Source: a virus
Taxonomy: Duplodnaviria; Heunggongvirae; Uroviricota; Caudoviricetes
Length of the DNA stretch: 24,872 nt
Virus record (IMG/VR): IMGVR_UViG_2737471862_000008
Span: 1 to 24,872 of that record
Strand: one strand, 5' to 3'
Positions within the stretch are counted from its first letter, which is position 1. Each line of letters starts with the position of its first letter. The notes beneath the pieces were generated by a model that saw nothing but the letters and a program-made list of their open reading frames with translations, was not told where the DNA came from and searched no databases. The position numbers and the translations under genes were made by a program. Of the stretch, positions 11,375 through 23,631 are shown in pieces.

Positions 11375-13141
11375 ATGAACACCACACTGACACCCACAGA
11401 TCTCGATCCCCGTCGGCAGGCCATGCTGCTGTACTTTCAGGGATACCGCGTCGCCCGCATTGCTGAAATGCTGGGCGAGAAAGTTGCAACCGTTCACAGC
11501 TGGAAAAAACGCGACAAGTGGGGTGACTATGGGCCGCTGGATCAGATGCAGCTCACCACCGCCGCACGCTACTGCCAGCTCATTATGAAGGAGCACAAAG
11601 AAGGGAAAGATTTCAAAGAAATTGACCTGCTGGCACGCCAGTCTGAGCGCCACGCGCGGATCGGCAAGTTTAACAATGGCGGCAATGAAGCCGACTTAAA
11701 CCCTAACGTTGCCAACCGCAACAAAGGCCCACGTCGTCAGCCGGAAAAGAATGTTTTCACCGATGAACAGATTGAGAAACTGGAAGAAATCTTCCATTCC
11801 TCCATGTTCAACTACCAGCGCCACTGGTGGGAAGCCGGAAAAACCAACCGCATCCGCAACCTGCTGAAGTCACGCCAGATCGGCGCGACCTTTTACTTTG
11901 CCCGTGAAGCCCTGATTGACGCCCTGCTGACCGGACGTAACCAGATTTTCCTTTCCGCCAGCAAGGCACAGGCCCACGTCTTTAAGCAGTACATCATCGA
12001 CTTCGCCAAAGAAGTGGAAGTGGAGCTGAAAGGCGATCCGATGGTGCTTCCCAACGGGGCCACGCTTTACTTCCTCGGCACCAATGCCCGCACGGCCCAG
12101 AGTTACCACGGCAACCTGTATCTGGATGAATATTTCTGGATACCGAAATTCCAGGAGCTGCGCAAAGTGGCTTCCGGTATGGCTATTCACAAAAAATGGC
12201 GACAAACCTATTTTTCCACGCCATCCAGCCTGACACACAGTGCTTATCCGTTCTGGTCCGGTGCGCTGTTTAACCGTGGGCGCAACAAAGCCGATAAGGT
12301 GGACATCGACCTGTCCCACAACAATCTGGCCCCCGGCTTGCTGTGCGCAGACGGGCAATACCGCCAGATAGTCACCGTGGAAGATGCGGTGCGCGGCGGC
12401 TGTAACCTGTTCGACCTCGACCAGCTACGCATGGAGTACAGCCCGGACGAATATCAGAACCTGCTGATGTGCGAGTTCGTGGACGATCTCGCGTCCGTGT
12501 TCCCGCTCAGCGAACTGCAGGCGTGCATGGTGGACAGTTGGGAAGTCTGGACCGACTTTCATGCACTGGCCCTGCGCCCGTTTGGCTGGCGCGAGGTGTG
12601 GATCGGTTATGACCCGGCAAAAGGTACGCAGAACGGCGACAGCGCCGGATGCGTGGTGGTGGCACCGCCAGCCGTGCCAGGCGGTAAGTTTCGCATTCTT
12701 GAGCGCCACCAGTGGCGCGGGATGGACTTCCGCGCCCAGGCTGATGCAATCAAAAAACTGACCGAGCAGTACAACGTGACCTATATCGGCATCGACTCGA
12801 CAGGCGTCGGTCACGGGGTTTATGAGAACGTGAAAGCGTTCTTTCCTGCCGTCCGGGAGTTTGTCTACAACCCCAACGTTAAAAACGCTCTGGTACTCAA
12901 GGCCTACGACATTATCAGCCACCGCCGTCTGGAGTTTGACGCCGGACACACCGACATAGCGCAGTCATTTATGGCAATCCGTCGCGCCACCACCGCCAGT
13001 GGCAACCGCCCGACCTATGAAGCCAGCCGCAGCGAAGAAGCCAGCCACGCCGATCTGGCCTGGGCAACGATGCACGCACTGTTTAACGAACCGCTGCAGG
13101 GCGAATCCGCCAATACCAGCAATATTGTGGAGATTTTTTGA
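11375..13141 (+). CDS. P: Terminase large (ATPase) subunit P
   Basis: 588 aa (P2 gpP is about 590 aa). Divergent from O; stop overlaps the Q start. Confidence 0.92.
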   Translation: MNTTLTPTDLDPRRQAMLLYFQGYRVARIAEMLGEKVATVHSWKKRDKWGDYGPLDQMQLTTAARYCQLIMKEHKEGKDFKEIDLLARQSERHARIGKFNNGGNEADLNPNVANRNKGPRRQPEKNVFTDEQIEKLEEIFHSSMFNYQRHWWEAGKTNRIRNLLKSRQIGATFYFAREALIDALLTGRNQIFLSASKAQAHVFKQYIIDFAKEVEVELKGDPMVLPNGATLYFLGTNARTAQSYHGNLYLDEYFWIPKFQELRKVASGMAIHKKWRQTYFSTPSSLTHSAYPFWSGALFNRGRNKADKVDIDLSHNNLAPGLLCADGQYRQIVTVEDAVRGGCNLFDLDQLRMEYSPDEYQNLLMCEFVDDLASVFPLSELQACMVDSWEVWTDFHALALRPFGWREVWIGYDPAKGTQNGDSAGCVVVAPPAVPGGKFRILERHQWRGMDFRAQADAIKKLTEQYNVTYIGIDSTGVGHGVYENVKAFFPAVREFVYNPNVKNALVLKAYDIISHRRLEFDAGHTDIAQSFMAIRRATTASGNRPTYEASRSEEASHADLAWATMHALFNEPLQGESANTSNIVEIF

Positions 13142-14178
13142 TGGGAAAGAGTAAGAAAAACCGCGCTGCGGCGACGAACCAGATTCAGCATAAAAGCCAG
13201 ACTTCAGCCGAAGCATTCAGCTTTGGCGATCCCGTTCCTGTTCTGGACCGCCGAGAATTACTGGACTATGTGGAATGCGTACAGATGGACCGTTGGTATG
13301 AGCCGCCCGTCAGCTTTGACGGACTGGCGCGCACCTTCCGCGCTGCCGTGCATCACAGTTCCCCGATTGCAGTAAAGTGCAACATTCTGACCAGTACCTA
13401 TATCCCTCATCCTCTGCTCAGCCAGCAAGCTTTTTCACGTTTTGTGCAGGACTATCTGGTATTTGGTAACGCCTACCTGGAGAAACGCACGAACCGCTTC
13501 GGTGAAGTTATCGCCCTTGAGCCTGCACTGGCAAAATACATCCGACGCGGGTTAGACCTGGATACCTACTGGTTTGTGCAATACAGTATGACAACCCAGC
13601 CGTATCAGTTCACGAAAGGCAGCATTTTTCATCTGATGGAACCGGACATTAACCAGGAGATCTACGGCCTGCCCGGTTATCTTTCTGCCATTCCGTCAGC
13701 TCTGCTCAACGAGTCCGCCACGCTGTTCCGCCGCAAGTATTACATTAACGGCAGTCATGCAGGCTTCATCATGTACATGACCGATGCCGCGCAGAACCAG
13801 GAAGATGTGAACAACCTCCGCAATGCGATGAAAAGCGCCAAAGGTCCGGGTAACTTCCGCAATCTGTTTATGTACTCGCCTAATGGTAAAAAAGACGGAC
13901 TTCAGATTATCCCATTGTCAGAAGTCGCAGCGAAGGATGAATTTCTGAACATCAAGAACGTCAGCCGTGATGACATGATGGCAGCGCATCGTGTGCCACC
14001 ACAAATGATGGGAATAATGCCTAGCAATGTTGGGGGGTTTGGGGATGTGGAGAAGGCTAGTCTTGTATTTGTTCGCAATGAATTGATGCCACTACAGAAG
14101 CGACTACATGAACTAAACGAATGGGTGGGTGCAGAAGTAATACGTTTTGATGACTATGTTTTAGGTGTTCAGGAATAA
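13141..14178 (+). CDS. Q: Portal (capsid vertex) protein Q
   Basis: Track ORF starts at a TTG at 13138; the ATG at 13141 follows GGAG and overlaps the P stop (TGATG). About 345 aa, as P2 gpQ. Confidence 0.9.
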   Translation: MGKSKKNRAAATNQIQHKSQTSAEAFSFGDPVPVLDRRELLDYVECVQMDRWYEPPVSFDGLARTFRAAVHHSSPIAVKCNILTSTYIPHPLLSQQAFSRFVQDYLVFGNAYLEKRTNRFGEVIALEPALAKYIRRGLDLDTYWFVQYSMTTQPYQFTKGSIFHLMEPDINQEIYGLPGYLSAIPSALLNESATLFRRKYYINGSHAGFIMYMTDAAQNQEDVNNLRNAMKSAKGPGNFRNLFMYSPNGKKDGLQIIPLSEVAAKDEFLNIKNVSRDDMMAAHRVPPQMMGIMPSNVGGFGDVEKASLVFVRNELMPLQKRLHELNEWVGAEVIRFDDYVLGVQE

Positions 14179-14224: not shown

Positions 14225-14563
14225 TTAACAAACAGCGTATAAACCATCAAATCCAACGGAATGAACCTTTTTTGATGCTACTTCATTGCTACGGCGTTGG
14301 ATCACTTTTGCAATACTTTTTAAAATTGAAGGGGATGCATTGCGAACCTTAACCTGACTCAAAACTTTGGTTACACCGAATTTCACTACCAAAACACCAA
14401 AGATTTCATCAGAGTATGATTCTGAAATTGAATAAACACCGCTCAGGTCTAAATCTACGGTATACCCTTCTTTAATGAACCCTTCAATCTTGTGTCGTTG
14501 GGGGATAGCCTGATTGCGCGAAGCCAGGTCACCCTCGGGTAACTTGTATGCGATTTTGTTCAT
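14225..14563 (-). CDS. Small STAS-like (anti-sigma-antagonist-like) protein; second gene of a two-gene cargo operon
   Basis: 112 aa. Start overlaps the upstream gene's stop (TAATG) and follows GGAGGAG. The motif VDLDLSGVYSISESYSDEIFGVLVV resembles the STAS/DUF4325-type hLDhsGV..hssSFaDEhfG core. Recalled similarity, not computed. Confidence 0.5.
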   Translation of the reverse strand: MNKIAYKLPEGDLASRNQAIPQRHKIEGFIKEGYTVDLDLSGVYSISESYSDEIFGVLVVKFGVTKVLSQVKVRNASPSILKSIAKVIQRRSNEVASKKVHSVGFDGLYAVC

Positions 14564-15537
14564 TACTCTCCTCCTAACGCCCGCATTATTTCCATAAGCT
14601 GAGGGTCATTTTCTTCGCTATCTTTATCGACTGCCAGTTCATGAATCTTAAAACGGCAAGAAATTGCTACACCCGGCCATTCAGTACGTAATTCAGTATA
14701 GCTCACTTCATCACCTATTGCTTCTAAGCATACATTTCCTGAAGCCAGTTGCAATTCCCCATTATATGTTTTTATCAATTTCATCAAGTGATATAACCCA
14801 AGCCCTTGATGATTATTATCTTTTTCTTTGACCGAAACCCCGTGACCAAACACACTACCCCCAATAAAATCCTGGGGAAGTTGCTGTGCCCAATCATCCT
14901 GCAAATCAGCATGCTTAGATGAATGTCCCTCTTGAATACACCATGCGATCGCATCCTGGTGAGTCTCAATTCCGGGTATACCAGCTCGCCGCAATTCTCG
15001 GAGAAATCCTAACCCACAGTCCGCCAAAGAAAATTCTAAATAGTGCTCTTTTCTTTGTGTGTGGGGTACAGCCGAACGTTGTGCAAAAGAAAAACCCGTT
15101 GATTTTCCATGCGACCAAACGTTATCGTGAAGCTCACCTATAACATGTGTTAGATCTGTAAGTCCCTTGGGATAATCTCTCGGATCACGATCAGGGAATG
15201 TTAACTGCCTTACACAACTGTTAATACTACCAGTGGCAACGTCAACAGCTTCAACATTGGTTAATGCTGTAACCAAACTGTAATTTCTCCCAACATTTAC
15301 ACGTTCCTGTTGATACTGATCCTCGCCCCATAAAGCACCATGTAAATTGATAGCCCGCATATAGTCAGGGCATGACAAAACGCAGTTATCTTCGGTAATT
15401 TTGTGATGATTCACGTAAGCTGCTAAGACAGTGATAAAACCAGGATGCCAATGGTTGTTTGGCAATTGCAATTCATTAGTTTCCTTTTGATGAAACGCAG
15501 CGGTATGCACAATAGCGTCTTTTAATCCTAACCCCAT
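14563..15537 (-). CDS. GHKL-type (histidine-kinase/anti-sigma-kinase-like) ATPase with an N-terminal domain of unknown function
   Basis: 324 aa. Bergerat-fold motifs are visible: N-box GELHDNVWSHG, G1 box LADCGLGF, G2 box HQGLGLYHL. The first ~130 aa have no recognisable motif. Lower GC than the phage backbone. Confidence 0.6.
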   Translation of the reverse strand: MGLGLKDAIVHTAAFHQKETNELQLPNNHWHPGFITVLAAYVNHHKITEDNCVLSCPDYMRAINLHGALWGEDQYQQERVNVGRNYSLVTALTNVEAVDVATGSINSCVRQLTFPDRDPRDYPKGLTDLTHVIGELHDNVWSHGKSTGFSFAQRSAVPHTQRKEHYLEFSLADCGLGFLRELRRAGIPGIETHQDAIAWCIQEGHSSKHADLQDDWAQQLPQDFIGGSVFGHGVSVKEKDNNHQGLGLYHLMKLIKTYNGELQLASGNVCLEAIGDEVSYTELRTEWPGVAISCRFKIHELAVDKDSEENDPQLMEIMRALGGE

Positions 15538-15566
15538 GAACCGAACCTTTTTTATGCATTTTTCTT

Positions 15567-15595
15567 ATCATATAACTTAGGACTGATCAGCGCAA
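15567..15595 (-). promoter_or_regulatory. Candidate sigma70 promoter of the GHKL/STAS operon
   Basis: On the minus strand: TTGCGC, 17 nt, TATGAT, about 30 nt upstream of the ATG at 15537. Prediction by eye only. Confidence 0.3.
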
Positions 15596-15649
15596 AGATC
15601 CCGACACTCTTGAATCATACTAAATTAAGGCCTATACCACACAGCGCGC

Positions 15650-15672
15650 GCTCGTATCCCCGCCACGCCTGC
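15650..15672. other. cos-like sequence (candidate cohesive-end site of the phage genome)
   Basis: The minus-strand reading of 15658..15669 is GGCGTGGCGGGG. That equals the first 12 nt of the 19-nt cohesive end I recall for phage 186 (GGCGTGGCGGGGAAAGCAT); P2 has GGCGAGGCGGGG. The match decays after 12 nt. It sits in a GC-rich island between two AT-rich cargo modules. Confidence 0.4.
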
Positions 15673-15711
15673 CCGCTTTATGTAGCGGTTTTCATGCGCC
15701 TGCATGACATA

Positions 15712-15738
15712 AGCAAAATCCCGCCACTCCTGGCGGGC
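15712..15738 (-). terminator. Putative rho-independent terminator of the membrane-protein cassette
   Basis: Hairpin CCCGCCA-CTCC-TGGCGGG, followed on the minus strand by ATTTTGCTT, about 90 nt downstream of the 15830 stop. Confidence 0.4.
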
Positions 15739-15829
15739 CTCAGCTAAAACGATCCTCAAACGATCATGCGGATTCATGCGGCATAGACATGCACAATCTC
15801 CAAAGCGGGCATCGAGACTTTTTGGAAAC

Positions 15830-16441
15830 CTACGTAACCACAGTTAATGTGTGCATCCTGTCTCGAATTGCATCACACGTCTCATCAAAAAGCTTGGTGA
15901 TGGTTGTATGGTTCAACTCCGCCTCTTTCCAATAATTTTGCCCGTCAAATTCTGGATCGCTATGCTTAAACGATATTGACTCTGAAAGGCATTCCTTCCG
16001 GAAACGGTCCAAGATTATATAAACCTCTGGTGAGATGAACGGTTTGTTAGATTCAACACTTGTAACAAAAGTGTTAAATGCATCAGAAAAAACTTTCAAC
16101 CTTCTAAATTTTCTCTCTTCAAATGGTTCGTTGGGGTCAACATGATCCAGCGCAGGCCTCAGCTTAAGCACGCTTTCTCTGGTTTCAAACATCGAATTCC
16201 AAATGAGACTATATGCTGATAACTCCTTATCAAAATACGCTTTCGTTACATAAACAGAATTGTCTAACTTAGCCTTTATTCTTTCATTAGTTGCACTCAG
16301 TTGTGATTGAAATTCAGCAATATCTTTGTTTAGCCGCGACTTATATCTTTCTAAATAAACTTTCCCGATCCAAACAAATATGCCAGATGCAACAAAAGAC
16401 ACCCCACCCAACGAAGCCAGAACTTTAAAGACTAAATCCAT
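15830..16441 (-). CDS. Membrane-anchored protein of unknown function (single N-terminal TM helix plus ~175-aa soluble domain); single-gene cargo cassette
   Basis: 203 aa. N-terminal hydrophobic helix VLASLGGVSFVASGIFVWIG, then a charged coiled-coil-like region. RBS GGTGGGGG precedes the ATG. AT-rich. Lies where P2-family phages carry variable genes (tin/old position). Confidence 0.55.
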   Translation of the reverse strand: MDLVFKVLASLGGVSFVASGIFVWIGKVYLERYKSRLNKDIAEFQSQLSATNERIKAKLDNSVYVTKAYFDKELSAYSLIWNSMFETRESVLKLRPALDHVDPNEPFEERKFRRLKVFSDAFNTFVTSVESNKPFISPEVYIILDRFRKECLSESISFKHSDPEFDGQNYWKEAELNHTTITKLFDETCDAIRDRMHTLTVVT

Positions 16442-16470
16442 TGCGCCCCCACCTGCAAAAATAGTATTCC

Positions 16471-16497
16471 ATTATAAGCTAATACATTTTTAATCAA
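16471..16497 (-). promoter_or_regulatory. Candidate sigma70 promoter of the membrane-protein cassette
   Basis: On the minus strand: TTGATT, 15 nt, TATAAT, about 30 nt upstream of the ATG at 16441. Spacer is short; by-eye prediction. Confidence 0.3.
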
Positions 16498-16705
16498 ACA
16501 GGGGATAATTCGCGTCAACCTCATCACTTCTCTGCTCTACCCTAGTGACTTCCATCAAAAACCCCAGGCCGTCATATAGCGAAACGGGGAATTCCAGCTC
16601 AAGCCAGAAGCAGTCTTCATAGATGCGGCCCAACCAAAAACCTCCGCCACACTCCTTTGGGCGTTGAAAGAAAACCCAGTCGCCAAGGGTTAAACGTTCC
16701 AGCAC
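16490..16705 (-). CDS. Hypothetical small protein (possibly a gene remnant)
   Basis: 71-aa ORF with no recognisable motif and an uncertain start. Its 3' end overlaps the predicted promoter of the next cassette. Confidence 0.25.
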   Translation of the reverse strand: MLERLTLGDWVFFQRPKECGGGFWLGRIYEDCFWLELEFPVSLYDGLGFLMEVTRVEQRSDEVDANYPLFD

Positions 16706-16823
16706 CTAGCCCCGATAAATAATCTGGTGATTACTGTCTTTTTTACCCATGGCTAACGCCTCGCTACTCTCGTTGTTCAACCTTGCTGACGTCAGATTCA
16801 AGTTCTTACATCAGGAACGTTCC

Positions 16824-17057
16824 TTAGTGCAGCCAGCTGTCGTCTTCCCAAACCTGTTGCATAATTTCCATCACCCGCTTTTTGTCTTCATCAAGCTTTA
16901 AGCCACTCAGCTCAACGCCGTTTGCCGACCCTTTACGGATGCGGATAGCGGTCTTGGGATAGATGGGTTGCAGGTTGCGGTAAAGCTCGGACTCCAGAGC
17001 GTCCAGGGTAGACTGGCTAATCTTCTGCTCTTTATCGATCATTATTTCAATGCGCAT
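16824..17057 (-). CDS. DinI-family protein (DinI / Tum C-terminal-domain-like)
   Basis: Track ORF trimmed to MRIEIMIDKEQ...: 77 aa. Alignable by eye with E. coli DinI (MRIEVTIAK...IDAL.GEL.RR.Q..FP......VR........V.G..K.DK.R...ILQETWE..D.W). Confidence 0.75.
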   Translation of the reverse strand: MRIEIMIDKEQKISQSTLDALESELYRNLQPIYPKTAIRIRKGSANGVELSGLKLDEDKKRVMEIMQQVWEDDSWLH

Positions 17058-17067
17058 AAAAGTCACC

Positions 17068-17256
17068 TCAGCTGATGACATCCATTGAGCGGTTGTATTC
17101 GTGGCTTCTGATTTTTGCCATGAGTTCATCAGTCAATTCAGAAACCCACTGCAGGGCCAGCCCCTTCTCTTCATCACTACACTCACTAGCCGCTACAAGC
17201 TTAAGAAAAAAATCAATGCGCTGGAGCTTCAAAGACTCCAAAAAATAGTCCTGCAT
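17068..17256 (-). CDS. Small protein upstream of the DinI-like ORF; candidate N-terminal part of a Tum-like antirepressor
   Basis: Track ORF trimmed to MQDYFLESLKLQ... (62 aa), which follows a strong RBS AGGAGGAAAG. In a different frame from the DinI-like ORF. Downstream of a LexA box. Confidence 0.5.
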   Translation of the reverse strand: MQDYFLESLKLQRIDFFLKLVAASECSDEEKGLALQWVSELTDELMAKIRSHEYNRSMDVIS

Positions 17257-17297
17257 CTTTCCTCCTATGACACCGCAAACAATACTGTACAGATAAC

Positions 17298-17340
17298 CAC
17301 TGTTTATATTTACAGTATATGATAATCTTACTGATGTAAA
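17298..17340 (-). promoter_or_regulatory. SOS promoter: LexA box overlapping the -10 of a sigma70 promoter
   Basis: Minus strand reads TTTACA (-35), 17 nt, TACTGT (-10). The LexA box TACTGTAAATATAAACAGTG (CTGT-N8-ACAG; consensus TACTGTATATATATACAGTA) covers the -10, about 45 nt upstream of the 17256 ATG. Confidence 0.6.
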
Positions 17341-17409
17341 ACGTTTTTTTACGTTCATCAGCCTGATATGCCTGGTATTATTAAGAGCACGAATTGTTAA
17401 CCCGCGTAA

Positions 17410-19824
17410 TTAATACAGGTTCCGCCACTTATCATCTTCCTGCAAACGCTGGTTCCGATAGAAGACACGCAGGCCTGCTCCTGACGGAATACTGCCGCCG
17501 CGAAGGAGTAAATCGACCTCTTTCTCGCTGCCATCAAATCCTCTGGACTTCAGTTCATAGACGAGCTGCTGTCGTTGATGGTCTGTAATTCGCTGTTTGT
17601 AGTCTCTACGCCGTTTCGGTTTCACCAGGCGTAACCTTGCAGCCAGTTCCCGGCGCTCTTTTTTGTTCATACTGTGCAGGTAATCGTGCAACTCCTTGTC
17701 ATCCATGTGGGTAATGTCCGTTCTGGTATCCCCATCAGCTGATTTGTCTTTCCCTTGTTGGTTCAAATTTTCAGCAAGGGGACAGTTATTGCCACGAGTC
17801 CAAGGGGCGCAAGCGCCCTGGTCGGCTGCCGCCTCCTGAACGTCAACGGCCTTACGAACCATTTTCCACTTCACGGCATGAGTGCAGATCTTGCCCTCTG
17901 CAATAGGTGACCAGATGCCATAAATACGAATGCCGTGATCGCCATAGGCGGTCGGCTCTTCGTTGATTTCATAAGCAGTTCTGATGAGGTGATATTTGCG
18001 GGGAACCAGTACGCCACCCTGCTTCATGATGTAGGTGGCAAAACAACCAGCATCAGCAGCAGCCAGAATGGCATCAAGGCGCGGGTTATCCAGTACCGGC
18101 GCACCTGCTTTTTTGTCCCCCTGTTGCCTTGCCGCCTGACCAGCCAGCAATCGCAGTTCACGGTAAGCCTGACGCCCCGGAATGCCAAAGAAGCGGAATT
18201 GCTGAACACGATGCAGAGACGCCCAGGCATTAACGTATTCAGCATTATCACGCAGGGATTTCCCCGTTTCCTTGCTGATCTCGCCAGCCAGACCACGCCC
18301 GTCAATGTTCTTACTGATGTATTTCGCGATGTAGCTTGTTGGCGTACCTTTGCGCGGGTTAATCAACTCAGACTTAAAGCGCGGCCCAGTGTTATTGCCC
18401 AGCTCCTCGCGGTCTTCACGGATGGCAAACTTACGCAGTAATGCAGTGATGGTGCGGCGGTCTTTTTTGCGCATAAAACACAACAGGTGCCAGTGAACTG
18501 TACCGTCATGATGCGGCTCAGCCACCCGCACGCCATACCACCGCAATCCGGCTTTGTGCATCGCCTTACGAAATGCAGCAAACATGCCGACCAGATAATC
18601 ACTGCTTTGTCTTACCGTCGCATTTGTCCAGGTTGGGTTGGGCCTGCCGTTATTTAGCGTGGAATGGAAACGTGACGGACAGGTGATGGTGTAGAAAACG
18701 GCGCAGTCACCGCGCATTTCCGCGATAAGCTCCAGACCTTTAACACAGGCCATCATCTCATTGCGGCGATGCGCTGGGTTGCTGCTGCTGGCGTTTACCA
18801 CATCCTCCATGTCCAGCGTGTCGCCGTCTTCGTTCACCAGTTCATGAGAACGGAAAAACTCCAGCGACTTACGGCGCTGCTCACGTTTATGCATCACGGC
18901 TTCATAGCTGACATAAGGAGATGCTTTTTTGCTGACAAGGCAGACTGCACGCAACTGCTCTTCCCGCCATTCGCAACGCATCTTCCATAATTTCCGATAC
19001 CACCAGTCGGCGCACAACATACGCGCCAGCGAACCCGGAATGAGTTCATAGGGCACGGGTTTACGGCGGTTTCTTTTCCGACGGAGTTGCTCAAACGCAG
19101 GCGGGATGACATCCAGACGCAGGGTTTCCGCTGCCACCCTTTCCCATGTATTGCGGATTTCTTCTGGCTTAACGTCATCGGTGGCATACAAATCGCCACA
19201 AGCGGCATCAAGGCACATACTCATATGCGCAGCTACCAGGGTGGACAGGCGTTTCACCTGATCCTGACTCATTTCAGGCAGGATCAGCAGGCCGTCCAGC
19301 CCTTCATGGCTTGCCATAAAGCGAAAAGATGCAGATAGCTGACTGTCGCGTACATGCTCCAGTCGTTCCAGACATGGCTTAATCGTCTCACGTAAATAGC
19401 GGGAATAAGCCTTTGGCCTGCCCAGGCTGCTGAAGTATTCAATACGTTGCATCAGCGGCTTGCTGATATGGGAAGGCTGGGCGTTGACGTCCGCCAGAAT
19501 GACCATATCCGGATTAAAACGCTGCTGCTCATGCGCCAGCTTTGCCCGACTAATGAGCTTATCCTGTTCCATTTCGCGCTGGACAGGATCACGGGATTCA
19601 TTAAAGAAATAACGCTCCCAGACCTGATCACTCAGCGCCTCACGGCGCAGCTGTTCCTGCTCGTTATCGGCAGCGTACAGAGTGATCAGGTTTGAAAGCG
19701 TAGAAACCGGCGCAACTTCCACCGGGTCCAGATAAGGGTTAATGGCCTTTTTCGGGCTGTTCCATGAGAACGATGCGGCAGCTTCGTTAAAGCCGCAGCA
19801 GTTGTTCATATCGGCATGACTCAT
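17410..19824 (-). CDS. A: Replication initiation protein A (rolling-circle nicking endonuclease)
   Basis: 804-aa ORF in the P2/186 position of gene A. Start ATG overlaps the Dam stop (ATGA). Confidence 0.88.
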
Positions 19825-20678
19825 GCACGTACTCCGTACACGGCAGAACTATCCACGCCACGCGAATAATCAAATCCCACCCAGCAGCGCGGCCCGGAAA
19901 CAGCAATGATTTCTGTTGCTGATTTACCCTCGCCAGCTGCCACACCGATGCTGCGTTTTGCCTTGATGTAGTGGTGAGTAAAATTGCGATACAGCGAACG
20001 GATCAGGGATGTGTCACTGTTAGAAACAATGACCGGATGTCCTTCTGATGACCGATGTTCAAGAACAGATGCCAGGTGATACTGGTCATCTTCAGTGAAG
20101 CCGTCAGTGTGATAGCCGGAAAACGTACCGTCATACGGCGGATCGCAATACACCACATCCCCCGCCTTCAACATCGCCAGCGTTTCATCAAAGCTGGCGC
20201 AGATAAACGTTGCTCGCTGGGCCTTTTCTGCAAATGCGCGAATTTCTTTTTCAGGGAAATACGGATTTTTATAATTACCGTAGGGAATGTTGAAATGCCC
20301 GCTCTTGTTATAACGACATAAACCACGGTAACCGTGACGATTGAGATACAGGAAATATACCGCTTTCATGAAATCAGTAATTTCAGTTGAGTAATTAAAC
20401 TCCTGCCTTATGTTGTAATAAGCCACCTCCCTGTTTGCGATCTCAAATAAAACTCTGGCGCGAGATATAAACGATTCACAATCAGCGGCAACCTTTTTAT
20501 AGAGGTTGATTAAATCAGGATTAATATCCGCAACCAGATAGCTGGGATAATCCGTCTCCATCATCACAGCACAGGAACCCGCGAAAGGTTCAACCAGTCG
20601 CGGGCCAGCAGGAAGATGTTTTTTCAGTTCGGACATTATGGCAGTTTTATTTCCCGCCCATTTCAGGATGGTGCTCAT
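19821..20678 (-). CDS. dam: DNA adenine methyltransferase (Dam-like, N6-adenine)
   Basis: Track ORF trimmed to [11 protein letters not shown]..., preceded by GGAGGT. Motifs [30 protein letters not shown] and the catalytic DPPY closely track E. coli Dam. Confidence 0.85.
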
Positions 20679-20902
20679 ACAGCACCTCCGTTGTAATGTT
20701 TGCCTTTCAGCTCTGCGATTTCCTGACAGGTAATGCAAAGCTGCACACCCGGAATGGCACGGCGGCGTGCTGGCGGAATTGGCGCTTCACACTCAATGCA
20801 AAGCACGCGGGACACGCCCGGCGTTTTGGCACGGGCAGCACGGATATGGCGTTGGCGTTCTTCTTCAACGCGCTGCTGTACGAGATCCATTGCATCAGCC
20901 AT
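20675..20902 (-). CDS. TraR/DksA-type C4 zinc-finger protein
   Basis: 75 aa with CIECEAPIP...CITCQ (CxxC-N17-CxxC). P2 carries a comparable zinc-finger ORF upstream of A. Confidence 0.65.
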   Translation of the reverse strand: MADAMDLVQQRVEEERQRHIRAARAKTPGVSRVLCIECEAPIPPARRRAIPGVQLCITCQEIAELKGKHYNGGAV

Positions 20903-22729: not shown

Positions 22730-22854
22730 GATGCAACATTCCTCGTTTAATGATGATTAATCAGGACGAATACGGATCGTTTGTATTTTGTGAACACCAT
22801 AAACATACGATCGCACAATGAAATCGTCAAGATAAAAGTTCACTTGGAGTGACC
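22730..22854. promoter_or_regulatory. Lysis-lysogeny switch region (early and repressor promoters and operators)
   Basis: 125-bp AT-rich gap between the divergently arranged apl-like and cI genes. Contains repeated GATCG/ATCG motifs at about 22775, 22809 and 22823. Promoters not resolved. Confidence 0.4.
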
Positions 22855-23424
22855 ATGAATTTGGAGAAAGGCGGACGAGGCGCTATAGAGCGCATGGTAG
22901 AAGCTTATGGATTCAAAACTCGACAGGCGTTGTGCGATCATTTAGGAATCTCTAAAAGTACACTCGCCACACGCTACATGCGTGACTCATTCCCAGCAGA
23001 ATGGGTAATCCAGTGCGCCCTTGAAACGGGCACCTCGCTTAATTGGCTCACAACCGGACATGGTTCAAAGCAAACTTCAGGTAATACAAATACTATGGAA
23101 GTTGCTAAATATGTATTATCTGATGGTGCCTTGCGTGAAGACGGTTTTTATATTTTTGATAAGGGATTTTTACCCTCTACGTTTAAAAAACCTTTTGTCA
23201 TCACAGATAACAATTCTGAATTTATTTGTGATAAAGAATTTGATGATATACGTGATGGTAAATGGGTAATAAGTATTGATGGCGAAGTAACGATCCGTGA
23301 CATTACTCGTTTACCCGGTGGAAGAATCTTCGTCGAGGGTGGAAACAGAGCCTTCGAATGTAAGATAGAAGACATTGAAATAATTGGTAAAATTATAAGT
23401 TTAACAGTCAAGTATGTTAAATAG
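22855..23424 (+). CDS. cI: Immunity repressor CI (186-type, ~190 aa)
   Basis: Track start GTG at 22849; the ATG at 22855 follows GGAG. N-terminal HTH (TRQALCDHLGISKSTLATRYMRD) plus a C-terminal domain. Its size matches 186 CI (192 aa), not P2 C (99 aa). Confidence 0.7.
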   Translation: MNLEKGGRGAIERMVEAYGFKTRQALCDHLGISKSTLATRYMRDSFPAEWVIQCALETGTSLNWLTTGHGSKQTSGNTNTMEVAKYVLSDGALREDGFYIFDKGFLPSTFKKPFVITDNNSEFICDKEFDDIRDGKWVISIDGEVTIRDITRLPGGRIFVEGGNRAFECKIEDIEIIGKIISLTVKYVK

Positions 23425-23439
23425 TACCGGGAGGAAACT

Positions 23440-23631
23440 ATGCTTGGTAAGGTATTTTTTGTGGTTTTGTCATGTTCTTTGTTATTAAACCCACTAACTA
23501 CCTATGCTAGAAATTATCCCTGCTCAGGGAAAAAGGGAGGTGTTTCTCACTGTACCTCAGATGGCAAATTCGTTTGCAATGATGGAACTATTAGTAAATC
23601 CAAAAAAATCTGTACTAAAAACTCACGATAA
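23440..23631 (+). CDS. Small secreted cysteine-rich basic peptide (signal peptide plus ~40-aa mature peptide); cargo gene between cI and int
   Basis: 63 aa. RBS GGGAGGAAACT precedes the ATG. N-terminal signal peptide [23 protein letters not shown]; mature part carries 4 Cys and many Lys. AT-rich. P2 and 186 have no gene at this position. Confidence 0.5.

Follow-up and report, generated by a model that had tools for sequence, protein, structure and literature searches.

A predicted SOS-controlled tumA-tumB operon, in two-gene form, on a Fels-2/186-like prophage

The window, that is, the whole stretch of 24,872 nucleotides that was analyzed, contains a tum-like operon that is encoded by the minus strand and that is located downstream of replication gene A. 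Gene A (17410..19824, minus strand) encodes a replication endonuclease of 804 aa; its 3' end, at 17410, lies directly upstream of the operon, and its position fixes the synteny of this region with those of 186, PSP3 and Fels-2. Gene A is followed, ahead of the operon promoter, by an imperfect inverted repeat (17331..17361, minus strand), the 3' arm of which overlaps the -35 hexamer. The corresponding RNA is predicted to fold into a hairpin with a free energy of -12 kcal/mol (z = -4.5 when compared with shuffled sequences), and the stretch is kept in Fels-2. There is no T-run at the 3' side of this hairpin, which may function as an insulator or as a terminator against transcriptional read-through from A.

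The promoter of the operon, as read from the sequence, consists of a -35 hexamer TTTACA (17335..17340, minus strand) followed, after 17 nt, by a -10 hexamer TACTGT (17317..17312, minus strand), a layout that resembles the one annotated for the SOS promoter p95 of phage 186. The -10 hexamer corresponds to the first six bases of a putative LexA (SOS) box located at 17298..17317, which reads CACTGTTTATATTTACAGTA on the plus strand and TACTGTAAATATAAACAGTG on the coding strand. A previous sequence-only reading of this DNA had described a near-consensus LexA box overlapping the -10 of a good sigma70 promoter. The first part of this description holds: the box has three mismatches to the 20-mer consensus, its CTGT and ACAG cores are both intact, and it is the sole site within three mismatches of that consensus, as well as the sole CTGT-N8-ACAG sequence, in the 24.9-kb window. 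In 100 shuffled versions of the window, no matches to the 20-mer with three or fewer mismatches were obtained, and the CTGT-N8-ACAG core occurred on average 0.32 times. Moreover, in 24 of the 33 species loci that we surveyed (see below), the homologous ORF is preceded within 120 nt by a CTGT-N8-ACAG box, and such a box is also present in 186 and PSP3. It should be noted that, in the alignment of the four promoter regions, MAFFT misaligned the LexA boxes of 186 and PSP3 relative to those of the Fels-2 type, and that the boxes were therefore compared by eye. The second part of the description, the quality of the promoter, stands in its geometry but not in its strength. Thus, a scan for consensus promoters retrieved none at its threshold, and the -10 matches the consensus at three of the six positions. 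Judged by consensus this p95-like promoter is weak, but its predicted geometry corresponds to the one annotated for the SOS-dependent promoter p95 of 186.

The first gene of the operon, which we refer to as tumA-like, encodes a protein of 62 aa (17068..17256, minus strand); its ATG start codon at 17256 is preceded by the Shine-Dalgarno sequence AGGAGG (17266..17261), and it ends with a TGA codon at 17070..17068. After an intercistronic spacer of 10 nt (GGTGACTTTT; 17058..17067, minus strand), which together with the stop codon forms the Shine-Dalgarno sequence GAGGTGA, a second gene starts with its own ATG at 17057. This tumB-like gene (16824..17057, minus strand) encodes a DinI-family protein of 77 aa and is in the +1 frame with respect to tumA. 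The coordinates of the two genes, as well as the Pfam score of 86 bits for the second one, agree with the earlier description of a 62-aa ORF that is followed 10 nt later by a DinI-family ORF in another frame. Two further features of this region that had been pointed out were also found. The tumA-like gene contains an A5/T5 run at 17112..17116, which forms part of the codons GCA-AAA-ATC (Ala-Lys-Ile), and the open DinI frame extends 24 codons beyond its ATG in the upstream direction (ORF 16824..17129), thereby overlapping the end of the first ORF. A terminator-like hairpin extending from the tumA stop codon to the Shine-Dalgarno sequence of tumB (17079..17062) was discarded, since 0.9 such hairpins are expected by chance and the junction differs in relatives.

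The assignment of the second gene is straightforward. Its product matches the Pfam DinI family (PF06183) with 86.1 bits against a cutoff of 24.2, matches the structure of Escherichia coli DinI (1GHH) with an E-value of 2e-9, and shares 43 % identity with residues 71-145 of 186 Tum (E 2e-25). It is 92 % identical to TumB of PSP3 and 86 % identical to the DinI-like protein of Fels-2. The score for NCBIfam PRK10597, the equivalog model for the chromosomal DinI, is 53.7 bits, which is below the cutoff of 111. By these scores, the tumB-like protein is a phage paralogue that is distinct from the product of the host dinI gene.

The 62-aa protein is 96.8 % identical to STM2728 of Fels-2. Searches of Pfam, NCBIfam and the PDB sequences did not produce a match, and the protein falls in PHROG 698 (phrog_698), whose annotation is "unknown function". 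BLASTP did not generate an alignment between the 62-aa protein and 186 Tum, and hhalign with a narrow profile gave a probability of 22 %. The homology with Tum therefore rests on a broader profile, built from 35 divergent family members that were obtained from the search of representative sequences and that are 27-74 % identical to the window protein. The consensus of this 35-member family is MxDLFxExxALQRIxLxxRLVxxxxCxxxDKxLAxxWxxEL. When this diverse profile was compared by hhalign with that of the 186 TumN family, the result was a probability of 96.8 % with an E-value of 2.3e-10, residues 1-45 of the one aligning with residues 1-45 of the other. The profile comparison thus identifies the 62-aa protein as a homologue of the N-terminal half of 186 Tum, and this tested link between PHROG 698 and the N-terminus of Tum is a useful by-product of our analysis. 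AlphaFold2 predicts that the protein folds into a two-helix hairpin (helices 2-23 and 28-61, pLDDT 89.8), the conserved Cys being located in the turn. A Foldseek search of BFVD with this model retrieved generic helical hairpins, none of them at an E-value of 0.001 or below, and did not help to assign the protein. Based on its homology and on synteny, the 62-aa protein is likely an antirepressor.

The window also encodes a 186-type CI immunity repressor of 191 aa (22849..23424, plus strand; HTH domain PF07022 2.8e-33, CI C-terminal domain PF16452 5.4e-29), which shares 32 % identity with 186 CI over 175 aa (E 8e-38). The CI gene is located 5.6 kb from the tum-like operon and is adjoined by Apl-like and CII-like genes. 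We infer that this CI is the target of the TumA-like protein. Among phages with a TumA that shares at least 97 % identity with that of the window, the CI proteins have only 35-59 % identity with one another, and such a near-constant TumA would be unexpected for a strictly allele-specific antirepressor. We compared the two domains of CI with TumA in a set of only 11 phages, uncorrected for shared ancestry. The identity of the N-terminal domain of CI to that of the window is 69-77 % when the similarity of TumA to that of the window is at least 97 %, 62 % when it is 49 %, 59 % when it is 41 %, and 41-47 % for TumA proteins of the 186, Yersinia and PSP3 types. The identity of the C-terminal domain, on the other hand, is 26-43 % throughout, without a trend with TumA. 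For the N-terminal domain of 186 CI, the best identity in the set (53 %) is with a Yersinia phage, whose Tum is annotated as "tum protein" and is 186-like by eye. Hence, the identity of the N-terminal domain of CI appears to track the similarity of TumA, which would fit an antirepressor that contacts the DNA-binding domain. Because of the size of the set and the uncorrected shared ancestry, we treat this pattern, a modest new point of the analysis, as a lead.

The arrangement of the two genes is not peculiar to this record. The promoter, the ribosome binding site, the A5 run, the TGA codon, the spacer and the second ATG of Fels-2 are base-for-base identical to those of the window. Over 507 bp, the complete genome of E. 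coli strain H1 does not differ from the window (100 % identity), the A5 run included, and the PGAP calls on it are a gene of 189 bp for a "hypothetical protein" (62 aa) and a gene for a "DinI family protein" (77 aa). The region was found in 1126 of 5426 complete E. coli genomes, 1083 of which contain at least 80 % of it, and in a 30-row sample of these complete genomes all but one of the 28 full-length records contain two features. In addition, the region has matches in 56 phage records, and in 55 of these the match extends over at least 80 % of the query. The two-gene variant, which was one of the options that the sequence-only reading had considered, is therefore the form found as the norm in related prophages.

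A total of 33 species-representative genomes were surveyed, ranging from Escherichia, Citrobacter, Enterobacter and Klebsiella to Pantoea, Erwinia and Tatumella. The first ORF has a size of 62 aa and ends with its own TGA, TAA or TAG codon in 29 of the 33 loci. The tumA gene is followed by a DinI gene in 20 loci, and in the other 13 an adjacent DinI gene is absent and TumA stands alone. The ATG of the DinI gene is located 9, 10, 11 or 12 nt past the stop codon of the first ORF, so that DinI can be in frame 0, +1 or +2 with respect to it, and the spacer always contains a GGGG/GAGG motif. The open stretch upstream of the DinI start varies from 1 to 25 codons across the relatives: 24-25 codons are limited to the window, Fels-2 and one Escherichia locus, another locus with the +1 frame has 21 codons, and the other relatives with the +1 frame have only 1-6. 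The 24-codon open stretch upstream of tumB is thus incidental. The survey, which shows that the two-gene or the TumA-only form is the norm, is a second useful by-product of this work.

The codons themselves provide another line of evidence. In 31 aligned loci in which the tumA ORF consists of 62 codons, codon differences involving a single base were scored in each of the frames. For codons 1-48, 82 % of these differences are synonymous in the tumA frame, versus 13 % and 9 % in the other frames. For the 14 codons that follow the A5 run (codons 49-62), the synonymous share is 64 % in the tumA frame, compared with 15 % in the DinI frame and 12 % in the third frame. Furthermore, this tail contains an invariant residue, E53, which is flanked by H52 and Y54, each of them conserved to at least 90 %. 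The synonymous bias and the conserved residues together argue that the stretch following the A5 run is truly coding in the tumA frame, and the A5 run itself reads as ordinary coding sequence without a lesion. A profile search of 1.84 billion cluster representatives yielded 87 clusters at an E-value of 1e-3 or below, which contain short proteins (22-133 aa) apart from one: the similarity of P0275, a repeat protein of 1205 aa with 10 matched stretches in the search of representatives, was rejected as spurious. None of 202 TumA-family proteins, the longest of which has 133 aa, has a DinI C-terminus; these 202 proteins comprise the best 120 of the 90 % clusters and, from the 87 clusters of the 50 %-identity library, 82 additional representatives. 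Conversely, with 186 TumN as query, a full-length Tum of 146 aa was absent from the best 120 matches, and 10 of these 120 run in frame into DinI-like sequence, although those proteins are truncated. The absence of full-length Tum among these best matches may be an artefact of the database or of gene calling.

These data bear on how the junction between the two genes should be interpreted. The sequence-only reading had described the operon as apparently split by a frameshift at the homopolymer, and one could imagine that the loss or gain of one base in the A5 run disrupted an ancestral single tum gene of ~146 aa, leaving a prophage that is perhaps not SOS-inducible. A deletion of one base in the T5/A5 run at 17112..17116 would indeed fuse the two ORFs, although into a protein of 143 aa and not of ~150 aa as had been estimated, and the 24 codons that precede the ATG of the DinI gene are open in its frame. 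The conceptual 143-aa fusion also aligns colinearly with 186 Tum over residues 7-141 (32 % identity, 142 columns), but the residues at the junction, with the peptide ELMAKSEATNTTAQW, are not conserved. The colinearity simply reflects that both halves are homologous to Tum and are present in the same order. In addition, Fels-2 and E. coli H1 have the same A5 run and stop codon, purifying selection acts in the tumA frame on the codons that follow the run, the DinI gene of relatives can be in each of the three frames or be missing, none of the 202 family proteins is fused to DinI, and the open upstream stretch is short in most other relatives with the +1 frame. Consequently, we consider a broken ancestral gene very unlikely, and the idea of an inactivated tum has to be abandoned. 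An error in the sequencing or the assembly of the homopolymer in this record is even harder to defend. It is true that homopolymers are error-prone on some platforms, but a run of five bases is short for such errors, the 507 bp are identical in an independent complete genome, the same junction is present in Fels-2 of S. Typhimurium LT2, and the ORF has 62 codons in 31 independent loci. Since Fels-2, H1, the other E. coli genomes and the phage records share the structure, a sequencing error or a private mutation is excluded for practical purposes. Programmed recoding, in which slippage of the ribosome or of RNA polymerase at the A run would generate some fused, 186-like Tum, also seems most improbable. 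The +1 frame is open across the overlap in both the window and Fels-2, and phage 186 makes several Tum products from one ORF. However, GCA-AAA-ATC is not known as a +1 or -1 slippery site, and efficient transcriptional slippage requires a run longer than A5. Relatives conserve neither the frame relation nor the open overlap, as illustrated by the spacers of 9-12 nt and the three frames, and the substitutions in the overlap are non-coding-like in the +1 frame, in which a mere 15 % are synonymous.

A different type of explanation accepts the two genes but not the function that we attribute to the first one. On the one hand, the 62-aa protein could be SOS-induced and yet be something other than an antirepressor, for instance a regulator of RecA/DinI or a host-directed protein, in which case induction of the prophage would follow another route. 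The databases assign it no function (phrog_698 is of "unknown function", and Pfam and NCBIfam are without a match), it is far more conserved than CI, and the direct functional evidence is limited to 186 Tum and, as a personal communication, PSP3 TumA. On the other hand, its homology with the N-terminal half of Tum and the syntenic location of its gene downstream of the sole LexA box of the window speak for an antirepressor, as does the covariation of its similarity with that of the N-terminal domain of CI. The 62-aa protein is also encoded in the 13 of 33 loci that lack an adjacent DinI gene, and is thus the constant part of the module. Furthermore, a lexA null mutation is lethal in Salmonella through Fels-2 (Bunny et al. 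2002, as cited in PMC3121763). Taking both sides together, we regard a function other than that of an antirepressor as unlikely. Our preferred interpretation, which we consider very probable, is that the region is an intact SOS operon of a Fels-2/186-like (Peduoviridae) prophage, in the common two-gene tumA-tumB form. The position after gene A, the LexA box, the p95 geometry, the homology to both halves of Tum and the 186-type CI all support the earlier suggestion of a LexA-controlled, Tum-like operon.

By analogy with 186 and with PSP3/Fels-2, such an operon would function as follows. In the lysogen, LexA bound to its box would keep tumA-tumB off. Upon DNA damage, RecA would become active, LexA would cleave itself, and tumA-tumB would be transcribed. 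TumA would then bind CI, probably at its N-terminal DNA-binding domain, and stop it from binding its operators. Release of the operators would derepress the lytic promoter, and the prophage would thus be induced without cleavage of the repressor. TumB would be translated from its own Shine-Dalgarno sequence and ATG shortly after the tumA stop codon and, being a DinI paralogue, could act on RecA filaments and modulate the SOS signal. A separate tumB may be functionally equivalent to the 186 situation, because 186 also makes the DinI-like part on its own.

It is also possible to go one step further and to speculate that the TumA-like protein is an antirepressor of broad specificity, which recognizes a conserved surface of the N-terminal DNA-binding domain of CI, with DinI as an optional accessory. 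DinI would be optional since it is absent in 13 of the 33 loci and recombines independently. A near-invariant TumA that serves divergent CI proteins could cross-induce different Fels-2-like prophages residing in one cell. We put this forward tentatively, as an idea that is less likely than not.

The two-gene tumA-tumB arrangement is already known from Fels-2 and PSP3, and what we describe here is nothing new in kind: antirepressors under LexA control, whether DinI is fused to them or encoded separately, were described in publications of 1996-2011. What changes is how this prophage should be regarded. Judging from its sequence, it is to be treated as SOS-inducible, with an intact induction module and not with a dead tum. 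The results also expose a gap in annotation, as the 62-aa gene is a "hypothetical protein" in RefSeq, yet it is present in about a fifth of the complete E. coli genomes. A family model that covers TumA of the 186, Fels-2 and PSP3 types would correct thousands of annotations.

The closest known system is that of Fels-2 of Salmonella Typhimurium LT2, in which STM2728 (62 aa) and STM2726.1 (DinI family) are located downstream of a gpA-like gene. The nucleotide identity with the window is 93 % over 471 bp. The two differ in several respects: the 3' half of tumB diverges (86 % aa identity), which indicates a mosaic breakpoint inside tumB, the CI proteins are only 39 % identical, and the downstream cargo genes are different. 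PSP3 also has tumA and tumB (NP_958094 and NP_958095) after gene A, with a LexA box over the -10. In its record, tumA is described as "similar to 5' end 186 tum; UV induction of prophage", and tumB as "similar to dinI and 3' end of 186 tum". However, PSP3 TumA (60 aa) is unlike that of the window (hhalign probability of 8 %), only the motif Cys...AL..IA being common to both, and by sequence it is a third, very divergent type of TumA. The two ORFs of PSP3 are, moreover, in the same frame and separated by a TAG and one codon, whereas those of the window are separated by a 10-nt spacer and are in a +1 relation. According to Lemire et al. 2011 (PMC3121763), a stop codon divides tum of Fels-2 and PSP3 into two, and in PSP3 the antirepressor is the product of the upstream gene and a DinI homologue that of the downstream gene. 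In that paper, the statement on the split rests on Bunny et al. 2002 and on a personal communication of G. E. Christie, and the antirepressor activity of the upstream gene of PSP3 is documented as a personal communication only.

In phage 186, the p95 SOS operon with tum (Brumby et al. 1996; Shearwin et al. 1998, as cited in PMC3121763) also follows gene A, its promoter (TTCACA-18-TACTGT) has a -10 that coincides with the LexA site, the N- and C-terminal halves of Tum are homologous to the 62-aa ORF and the DinI ORF of the window, respectively, and CI is of the same family. Translation of 186 tum from an internal GTG also yields the DinI-like part alone, which according to the annotation modulates SOS induction. 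The operon of the window would work like that of 186. The main difference is that 186 Tum is one polypeptide of 146 aa, a feature that does not apply to the two genes of the window. Besides, the identity of the N-terminal half is too low for BLASTP, the distance between the LexA box and the start codon is 41 nt in the window versus 18 nt in 186, giving the window a longer 5' UTR, and orf97 of 186 is absent from the operon of the window. More distant in relationship are the Gifsy-1/2/3 prophages, in which a LexA-controlled dinI-gfoA/gftA operon encodes a DinI homologue and a small antirepressor (PMC3121763). As in the window, a palindrome precedes the LexA box. In contrast to the window, the operon of these lambdoid phages starts with dinI, and its antirepressor, like the repressor, is from an unrelated family. 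In the Gifsy phages, the repressor is inactivated without cleavage, and cross-talk in trans has been shown (PMC3121763).

A gene for a DinI-family protein does not always accompany the tumA-like gene (window 17068..17256, minus strand), whose product corresponds to the N-terminal half of the phage 186 protein Tum. In 13 of the 33 species loci that we compared, the tumA-like gene has no adjacent DinI gene. It stands alone in the relatives' loci L008, L010, L019, L022, L027-L033 and L036, and in the phages ESSI2_ev129 (L046) and ESSI-2 (L047), where the portal gene or another gene follows it directly. That so many relatives lack DinI at this position leads us to regard it, from gene arrangement, as an optional partner of the putative antirepressor. 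Database homologues of the 186-type Tum N-terminus are likewise mostly predicted stand-alone proteins, 63-78 aa in length (for example, the retrieved proteins P0153, P0156, P0169, P0184, P0192 and P0199), and some of them, encoded on megabase contigs, carry the name "Tum protein". Only 10 of the best 120 matches to this N-terminus continue in frame into DinI-like sequence. The fused form found in 186 may be the minority state, although bias in the databases or in gene calling may also have shaped these counts.

The start of the tumA-like gene requires comment, because a mechanical ORF list takes it upstream to an ATG at 17358 (extension 17257..17358, minus strand), and many database entries contain longer versions of the protein (96 aa, or 87-101 aa). 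This extension would cross both the LexA box and the promoter. PGAP chooses the start at 17256, which is preceded by AGGAGG and is conserved in all relatives. Between the end of the replication endonuclease gene A and the SOS promoter lies a stable hairpin (17331..17361, minus strand; -12 kcal/mol, z -4.5), the 3' arm of which overlaps the -35 of that promoter. No T-run follows the hairpin, which recalls the terminator-like palindromes that have been described upstream of the Gifsy LexA boxes.

Comparison with the closest known phages revealed a breakpoint of mosaic type within tumB, the DinI-family gene. Identity to Fels-2 is near 100% throughout tumA and over the initial ~70 bases of tumB; further on, in the 3' half (window ~16830..16990; columns ~270-440 of alignment A2), it falls sharply. 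While the TumA of the window is of the Fels-2 type, its TumB is overall nearer to that of PSP3 (92% amino acid identity) than to that of Fels-2 (86%).

Two further genes of the element deserve mention. A D12-class N6-adenine DNA methyltransferase gene (19821..20738, minus strand; Pfam E 1.2e-76) lies directly upstream of gene A and overlaps it, an arrangement also seen in Fels-2 and in E. coli H1. Between cI and the integrase gene int, a 63-aa ORF (23440..23631, plus strand) encodes a product that is hydrophobic at its N-terminus and contains several cysteines; the lysogen could express it as a lipoprotein or a secreted protein.

Between tumB and the portal gene Q (13138..14178, plus strand) lies a cargo block of four ORFs without known function (14225..16705, minus strand). 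Three encode proteins of 71 aa (phrog_2100), 203 aa (phrog_26391) and 324 aa (phrog_3364); the fourth, which overlaps, encodes a 112-aa DUF4325/STAS-like protein with a weak PADLOC match to part of DrmA. A scan of 16400..17500 found no terminator, so that transcription of the SOS operon may continue into the block. At the corresponding position, 186 carries orf97 and Fels-2 carries other genes. E. coli H1 has the same 203-aa gene, but there a retron St85 system comes after it, which makes this position look like a variable hotspot, possibly one for anti-phage defence.
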